Source: Clostridiales bacterium (GTDB taxonomy: Bacteria; Bacillota; Clostridia; TANB77; CAG-508). Taken from it: 64,000 nt of DNA. The position numbers and the translations under genes are program-made. A model generated the notes under the pieces. It made no database searches, had not been told where the DNA came from, and saw only the letters and a program-made list of their open reading frames with translations. The stretch covers positions 13,749 through 77,748 of the forward strand of contig JAHZIB010000003.1 in NCBI GenBank assembly GCA_019419955.1, given 5' to 3'. This document shows, piece by piece, positions 41,529 through 41,790 of the stretch (the stretch's first letter is position 1; every line of letters begins with the position of its first letter).

Positions 41529-41790
41529 TATAGGAAAAATCGACTTTTTGCCTTATATTTTAGTACTTATAACGATTTTTTCGTATACAACAAGGTTAAT
41601 TTACCTTAGGCTGTGCATATTCGCGAAGCGAAATGCACATGTGGACGTCGGAAGCTTTGCTTCCGCTAACGTCCAATTTTCTTACATAGAAAAATTTGCC
41701 TGACATTTCCAAAGTGACAAGGGTAAGTTTAATTGTGCTGTGAATATTTGAGAAACAAAATGCACATGTGGCGAGACCACTTTTCCTAAT
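41529..41790. repeat. Composite copy c of the intergenic repeat family (M1, module c1, GC hairpin, M2, module c2)
   Basis: TATAGGAAAAATCGACTTTTTGCCTTATATTTTAGTACTTATAACGATTTTTTCGTAT...GGTTAATTTACCTTAGGCTGTGCATATTCGCGAAGCGAAATGCACATGTGG. Then GGACGTCGGAAGCTTTGCTTCCGCTAACGTCC. Then ACATAGAAAAATTTGCCTGACATTTCCAAAG...TGCACATGTGG. Confidence 0.65.

Follow-up and report, generated by a model that had tools for sequence, protein, structure and literature searches.

A modular, non-coding and probably mobile repeat family found 3' of T-runs at gene ends in uncultured gut Clostridia

The window analysed here, by which we mean the whole stretch of 64,000 nucleotides taken from contig JAHZIB010000003.1 of a Clostridiales bacterium, belongs to a genome of 1.31 Mb in 39 contigs, with 30% G+C and a completeness of 96%. 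In this window the gene for an 1834-aa surface protein ends in a hairpin and a T-run, directly behind which we observed a full-length copy of a non-coding repeated element and then a second, different copy (Table 1). The original prediction had read the segment 41529-41790 as two modules, and these are in fact two abutting elements. Boundaries were determined from near-identical copies aligned with their flanks (eight copies for the main window element). The genome has six other A1 copies, each at a different locus, with an identity of 93-100% to the main element (98-100% in four of them). The second element is composed of a short left arm CATAGAAAAATTTGCCTGACATTTCC, a degenerate box, a P3 hairpin, a mini-hairpin P4 GTGGCGAGACCAC and a tail CTTTTCCTAAT. 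As to the surroundings, the two giant surface-protein genes constitute a ~11-kb tandem duplication (window 31000-52300, repeat families D3-D15, approximately 71-83% DNA identity), and the main copy is located exactly between its two units.

Table 1. Copies of the element in the window, with the parts and the landing site of the main copy (P1 to P4, hairpins)
Feature	Position in window	Strand	Basis
Landing site of main copy: hairpin GGACACCC...GGGGTGTC and T-run TTTTTTGTTATT	41474..41527	+	read from sequence
Full-length A1-subfamily element, 158 nt	41528..41685	+	8-copy alignment with flanks
Main element, P1	41528-41588	+	
Main element, box plus P2	41589-41611	+	
Main element, P3	41612-41639	+	
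Main element, P4	41643-41674	+	
Main element, tail AATTTTCTTAC	41675-41685	+	
Second element, directly behind the tail of the first	41685..41790	+	sequence; weak model match, E = 0.024
Long left hairpin, box and B-type P3, truncated before P4	17942..18055	+	nhmmer; model R1, E = 1.6e-15
P1-only copy, TTATAGGAAAAATTGA...TTGATTTCTCCTAT	20007..20059	+	repeat family D17 and sequence
Short left arm, box, B-type P3 and B-type P4	22884..23009	+	model R1, E = 7e-15
5'-truncated copy: box, B-type P3, B-type P4, tail	59850..59941	+	nhmmer/model

A repeat search delimited shared blocks at 17932-18056, 19999-20047, 22920-22969, 41518-41614 and 59850-59899 (families D16-D18). The sequence-only model A1/R1, built from 38 distinct copies, matched the window at 41575-41640, 17989-18048, 22903-22961 and 59850-59891, and weakly at 41706-41767. 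At least six copies had been announced for the window; five of them are real, but the "degenerate copy" at 7017-7063 was absent even at E = 5 with filters off. The copy described as terminus only (20008-20048) is indeed the left hairpin alone. A hairpin plus T-run precedes each window copy, in agreement with the predicted placement behind gene-end hairpins: the P1-only copy is directly behind the terminator of an M23 peptidase gene, the copy at 22884 is preceded by an 18-bp terminator hairpin, and the one at 59850 lies behind the terminator of a cohesin-domain gene, where it was present in 4/4 same-species metagenome contigs examined. We also observed exact 43-bp direct repeats at window 20847-20889 and 23032-23074, which flank a two-gene block (21033-22819); within them lies the reverse complement of a terminus resembling the left end, TTTATAGGAAATTTTTTC, and they look like inverted solo left-arm fragments.

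The genome-wide scan that accompanied the original prediction as a proposal was carried out with two iterated nhmmer profiles (E ≤ 1e-4, overlapping matches merged). It returned 63 merged copies in the whole 1.31-Mb genome, further copies being found outside the window, and by blastn the window copies matched nearly every contig. All 63 copies are intergenic, though ORFs of at least 100 aa occupy 82% of the genome; three copies apparently inside ORFs are explained by ORFs that consist of the repeat itself. One 111-aa ORF (C21:6582-6917), for example, is made wholly of two tandem element copies, and such repeat-made ORFs are likely called hypothetical proteins in public annotations. The copies are short (50-160 nt) and non-coding, with a trivial longest open frame, as in short multi-copy MITEs. 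A search of Rfam gave no match at the gathering score for the whole window, and none at E up to 1 for positions 41480-41820.

The repeat deserves attention on practical grounds: about 1% of this small genome, and much of the spacer DNA at its gene ends, consists of it. It creates spurious ORFs, may be taken for a small RNA or a riboswitch, and breaks assemblies, several copies being at contig ends. Copies combining a short arm with an A3-type P4 (C33:132-200, C8 end, C37 end and C6:970-) are followed by a shared sequence, TGTAAAAATTACCCCTCTAATTCGCACGAAAGG..., with which a larger multi-copy repeat begins and the assembly breaks. Several members of a ten-member paralogous secreted or pilin-like family with a common C-terminal domain (...YWSSS...RLxxTF; for example C1:98292-99302, C6:201-839 and C39:99-1760) are also situated at contig ends, and one of them has an element copy starting from its stop codon.

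A full copy measures 125-160 nt and consists of four consecutive hairpins, P1 to P4, which behave as exchangeable modules; it starts with GTATAGGAAAAATCG... and finishes with ...C(T)TTTCTTAT. P1, the left terminal hairpin, is formed from the very first base (GTATAGGAAAAATCG / CGATTTTTCCGTATAC), with a loop of about 30 nt in the host's genus, about 20 nt in a further genus, and 3 nt in other genera and in the copy C1:102849; a short-arm version, GCATAGGAAATTTC-loop-GAAATTTCCGGAGCAAC, also exists. After P1 comes a conserved box (consensus ACAACAAGGTTARG, fuller form ACAACAAGGTTAGGYTACCTTRGGC), the 5' half of which is conserved as sequence in all genera. The P2 pairing, AAGGT/ACCTT, is lost in one subfamily. 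P3, with a variable stem, is followed by ACATGTG and then by P4, whose stem is likewise variable and occurs in at least four versions; both hairpins keep their pairing and the apex GC-RAR-GC. The end of P4 is 9-11 nt away from the right boundary, and the element terminates in a T-rich tail, CTTTTCTTAT. Modules have been recombined freely among copies, and truncated and "P1 plus tail" mini copies are common (window 20007-20059, C36:36825 and C36:41060). The ends of subfamily A carry weak imperfect inverted repeats (TATAGGAAAAAT versus the reverse complement of AATTTTCTTATA, 9/11) and those of subfamily B an inverted match of only about 7/10, both of which may just reflect A/T runs.

Covariation of the stems had been proposed from the window copies alone, and it holds for P3, whose stems vary among copies while their complementarity is kept. 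P3 shows real compensatory change: a C-G pair of subfamily B is replaced by G-C in subfamily A (22 versus 17 distinct copies), and within subfamily A pairs change from A-T to G-C and from C-G to T-A. In other genera the P3 stems are CAATTGC/GCAATTG, CGATTGC/GCAATCG, GGTTTGC/GCAAACC and GTGAAG.ACTGC/GCAGTCTTCAC, with the same flanks and a common apex, GC-RAR-GC, and for 7/9 P3 versions the fold is one common bulged stem of 11-12 bp capped by a triloop. These observations come from curated variants, the automatic apex-anchored count being contaminated by false positives and bulges; moreover, the model is a sequence-only one because the MAFFT alignment (A1) misplaces the right arm of P3 between subfamilies, and this alignment was used for the model alone. 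P1 and P2 hardly vary: each has two both-sided cells, compensatory change is almost absent, and they tell little for or against covariation. The DNA mini-hairpin d(GCGAAGC) is unusually stable, and we take the hairpin tip GCGAAGC of the element to be that same sequence, which we regard as a lead.

Folding of the main element as RNA gave z = -6.1. When both strands of subfamily A were considered they folded equally well (z = -6.1 and -6.3), and mismatches over all helices were balanced, with 80 G.T against 70 A.C. Because of this balance neither RNA strand is favoured; the pattern singles out no RNA strand and fits either DNA-level structure or neutral decay after insertion.

A conserved frame on the minus strand had also been put forward, and this claim does not stand. 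Its stop is the reverse complement of the TTA in GGTTAGG, and only the last ~5 codons (QPKV-stop) are homologous among copies, which is simply the conserved box in translation. Since the A and B subfamilies have P3 hairpins that differ by 7 nt, the "peptides" upstream are read in different registers. The median length of the open stretch is 19 codons, and a long parent ORF was not found.

The landing site was examined on 42 copies with an identifiable left end. Directly before GTATAGG, and in a single orientation, the left flank has the consensus yTTTTTTATT, more precisely y-TTTT(T/C)TT-ATT, with T in 30-40/42 sites at positions -9 to -4, A in 35/42 at -3 and T in 37-40/42 at -2 and -1. A hairpin of -8 kcal/mol or stronger lies within 45 nt upstream at 60% of the sites, compared with 21% of intergenic and 4% of genic control TTTTTATT sites (Mann-Whitney p ~1e-8 and ~5e-12, respectively). 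Such a strong hairpin is missing at about 40% of the sites; thus the T-run ending in TTAT(T) is the constant requirement and the hairpin a strong preference. In two cases the insertion follows a tRNA gene (tRNA-Arg and tRNA-Gly), at a distance of 9 nt from its 3' end. Copies in other genera have the same flank, termini and tail. At tandem junctions we read ...CTTTTCTTATT|GTATAGG, and therefore the right end of an element serves itself as a landing site.

TTAT is present at both junctions, which represents either a 4-bp duplication or a copy of the target borne by the element, and because of it the exact insertion point cannot be fixed. Beyond TTAT, no longer target duplication was detected, the left flank and the right end differing within a copy (for instance TTTTTTAT versus TTTCTTAT). 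The geometry is that of IS200/IS605 miniature elements: a hairpin lies close to each end, and in 35-40/42 sites the element is inserted 3' of a fixed TTAT(T).

Empty sites were searched for with the joined flanks of 21 copies, queried against all 38 species of the genus. At four orthologous loci of congeners the element is precisely absent, and the joined flanks align there without a break at the junction. The clearest example is C1:102849-102725 compared with the congener G017, which has flanks of 96% identity and lacks exactly the 125 nt of the element. The G017 allele fits a single TTAT, and the filled allele has TTAT on both sides. The loci C27:5775, C9:16935 and C5:3891 are empty in several species. 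Among same-species metagenome contigs no presence/absence difference was observed for the three window copies examined, and movement is therefore demonstrated on the between-species scale only.

The family was detected by blastn in 22/24 congeners tested. With the model, we found it in 30/201 genomes and in 13/32 sampled genera of the order, nearly all of them in the host's GTDB family, and its distribution is patchy (from 0 to at least 25 copies per genome). Plasmid, phage and IMG/VR collections contained no record with the element: 15-mer matches in IMG/VR are due to chance, and blastn against 72,556 plasmids gave no match.

Taken together, the empty congener loci, the tandem arrays, the patchy spread and the balanced mismatches speak for a DNA element that moves rather than for a dedicated RNA gene. 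With a probability of roughly three in four, we consider the repeat to be a modular family of non-autonomous, non-coding mobile DNA, which inserts in one orientation 3' of a T-run ending in TTAT(T). The original prediction is consequently confirmed in part. It had left a choice between a structured RNA or REP-like element and the decayed 3' end of a once-mobile gene. From the first option, the structure, the non-coding nature and the covarying stems are retained, but the element is more likely mobile DNA than a dedicated RNA gene, and it is not a strict REP. The second finds no parent IS or transposase and no longer ORF, and the frame on which it drew is an artefact of translation.

Insertion is directed, in most cases, to the T-tract of an intrinsic terminator and sometimes to the run that follows a tRNA gene. 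The right end of the element (hairpin plus TTTCTTAT) copies this landing signal, so that later copies land behind earlier ones and form tandem arrays. We propose that a trans-acting protein would recognise the conserved termini, the box and the hairpins formed in single-stranded DNA; it would resemble an HUH (IS200/IS605-type) transposase or a site-specific recombinase, and would not belong to the classical transposases that can be detected in this genome. The copies probably have the secondary effect of making 3' UTRs longer and of supplying a back-up terminator. Such a selfish sequence can spread in a streamlined genome while sparing genes, using terminators as safe harbours and carrying with it a terminator look-alike.

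What could move the element was searched for in its own genome, which is 96% complete. No match was obtained to Y1_Tnp (PF01797), IS110, RVT_1, rve or DDE_Tnp_1, and for the TnpB family no match exceeded the cut-off; Y2/IS91 also gave no match, but for this family the control genomes were equally silent. A self-comparison of all ORFs revealed no multi-copy transposase-like ORF, and the search for a parent gene suggested in the original prediction brought up no parent IS, transposase gene or long ORF. Five tyrosine recombinases are the only evident recombinases among the families searched, and none of the five is linked to copies. One of them, on C36, lies between two left-end fragments, both of which are independent mini copies at terminators. 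In the window, mecA is located between two inverted left-end fragments; this was considered as an LE-gene-RE arrangement and was rejected as a parent gene or IS. "Partial" model matches in another genus, considered as a gene-carrying form, correspond to a further non-autonomous subfamily. No autonomous, gene-carrying version was found in any genome examined (38 congeners and other genera).

Y1/RAYT proteins were rejected as the mover, being absent from the genome itself, and the Y1 genes of congeners have no copies nearby. Their number per congener does not correlate with the copy number of the element (rho = 0.23, p = 0.40), the value against genome size being rho = 0.71. These congener genes, at L011, L013 and L016 (G009, G002 and G005), encode IS200-like/RAYT-like proteins of ~260 aa and are preceded by TAGGGAC-type hairpins, which form a different repeat/transposase pair from the element studied here.

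What is of real interest is the multiplication of the element in a genome without any of the classical transposase families searched. Since these were not found, this lineage may offer a clean system in which to look for the mover. To our knowledge, the question of what moves bcr1, a repeat of the Bacillus cereus group, is unanswered after 20 years. The absence among known families leaves an enzyme that is not recognised as such, a mover that has been lost or is carried by an unassembled replicon, or a transposase-free copy-choice process. That termini and box are conserved speaks for a specific trans-acting partner. More speculatively, and with only a small chance of being right in our opinion, the mover might stand outside the known transposase families, recognise in single-stranded DNA a "hairpin + T-run ending TTAT", which would act as donor end and as landing site alike, and take the box ACAACAAGGTTARG and the GC-RAR-GC tips as handles. 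If true, this would represent a new class of terminator-homing DNA transposition that spares genes.

Copy-choice, that is template switching at replication, would require no transposase at all: the nascent strand would slip from a hairpin plus T-run to the T-run before an element, replicate the element as far as the hairpin plus T-run at its own end, and then slip back. This scheme accounts for the single orientation and for the TTAT/T-run microhomology seen at either junction; it also explains why the target and the 3' end of the element both require a hairpin plus T-run, and it covers the tandem arrays, the mini copies with one hairpin and a tail, the free reshuffling of modules and the lack of any transposase or reverse transcriptase. 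We nevertheless consider it unlikely, since it does not account for the conservation of the termini GTATAGGAAAAATCG and of the box ACAACAAGGTTA across genera while the stems vary, nor for the fact that just this sequence multiplied and not any inter-terminator DNA. In addition, the sites without a strong hairpin (about 40%) are not those expected from such slippage.

Quite unlikely, in our view, is a structured RNA module selected by the host and kept for its function as a 3'-UTR stabiliser, a terminator or a small RNA. The strong predicted fold of subfamily A, the compensatory changes of P3, the position of most copies downstream of genes and the terminator-like right end would suit such a module, and bcr1 repeats have been reported to be transcribed (PMC3184786). 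However, the two strands fold alike and the G.T and A.C mismatches are balanced, insertions are species-specific with empty congener loci, many copies are truncated, solo-arm or tandem, Rfam gave no match even at E = 1, and a promoter-like site was looked for inside the element and not found. Ordinary IS decay, in which the copies would be the truncated ends of an IS that has lost its gene, might draw on the weak inverted termini of subfamily A and on the Y1 transposase genes of some congeners, but it is very improbable: no copy in the 38 congeners and other genera has a gene between the ends, the flanks of the congener Y1 genes are of another kind and the number of these genes does not follow that of the copies, the minus-strand "frame" results from translating the box, and the plasmid, phage and IMG/VR collections hold no match.

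The mobile DNA family proposed here can be set against several known systems. It differs from classical MITEs by having just an invariant TTAT in place of a fixed-length, variable target duplication, and no parent IS with a DDE transposase, rve and DDE_Tnp_1 being absent from its own genome. Group IIC introns home just after intrinsic terminator hairpins in one orientation. The element shares with them this homing to terminators in one orientation and nothing else: with 125-160 nt it is too small for a group II ribozyme, and neither RVT_1 nor an Rfam intron match was found. With the miniatures of IS200/IS605 (PATEs) and with REP/RAYT systems it has in common hairpins at or near both ends, strand-specific insertion 3' of a short fixed sequence, the lack of convincing terminal inverted repeats and of a clear duplication, and a right hairpin about 10 nt before the boundary. 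Unlike IS200/IS605, its own genome is without a Y1 (HUH) transposase and its left hairpin is placed at the boundary, which leaves no room for a guide sequence of the IS608 type; unlike REPs, its consensus contains no GTAG/CGTC tag and the genome no RAYT/Y1 gene.

The pneumococcal SPRITE is a repeat of ~105 bp, AT-rich, terminator-like and enriched near gene 3' ends, with no matching IS and no established target duplication, and for which empty sites could not be found (PMC3049150). Our element is similarly a small, AT-rich, interspersed and terminator-like repeat with a bias to gene 3' ends. SPRITE is formed by a single 18-bp duplex with a U-rich tract and AAAA/TTTT ends, whereas the element has four hairpins, an internal box, a defined landing sequence and empty sites that were found.

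The closest described analogue appears to be bcr1 of the Bacillus cereus group, with which the comparison was made by description (PMC3184786, PMC6199540). bcr1 is a transcribed repeat of ~155 bp with TTTAT on its flanks and a structure kept by compensatory changes; its position is not conserved between strains and its mechanism is unknown (PMC3184786, PMC6542083, PMC6199540). Copies have been reported on some plasmids of the B. cereus group (PMC6542083). The likeness extends to the size (~155 bp against 125-160 nt), to the non-coding, intergenic and multi-copy nature with a variable position between close relatives, to a short T-rich direct repeat (TTTAT there, TTAT within a T-run here), and to a stable multi-hairpin fold with compensatory changes, here in P3. 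The differences are the host, Bacillus in one case and uncultured gut Clostridia in the other, and the targeting of terminators with mimicry of the target by the right end, which do not figure in the cited descriptions of bcr1. The element is thus a new family of the bcr1/SPRITE/MITE-like kind of selfish repeat, in uncultured gut Clostridia.
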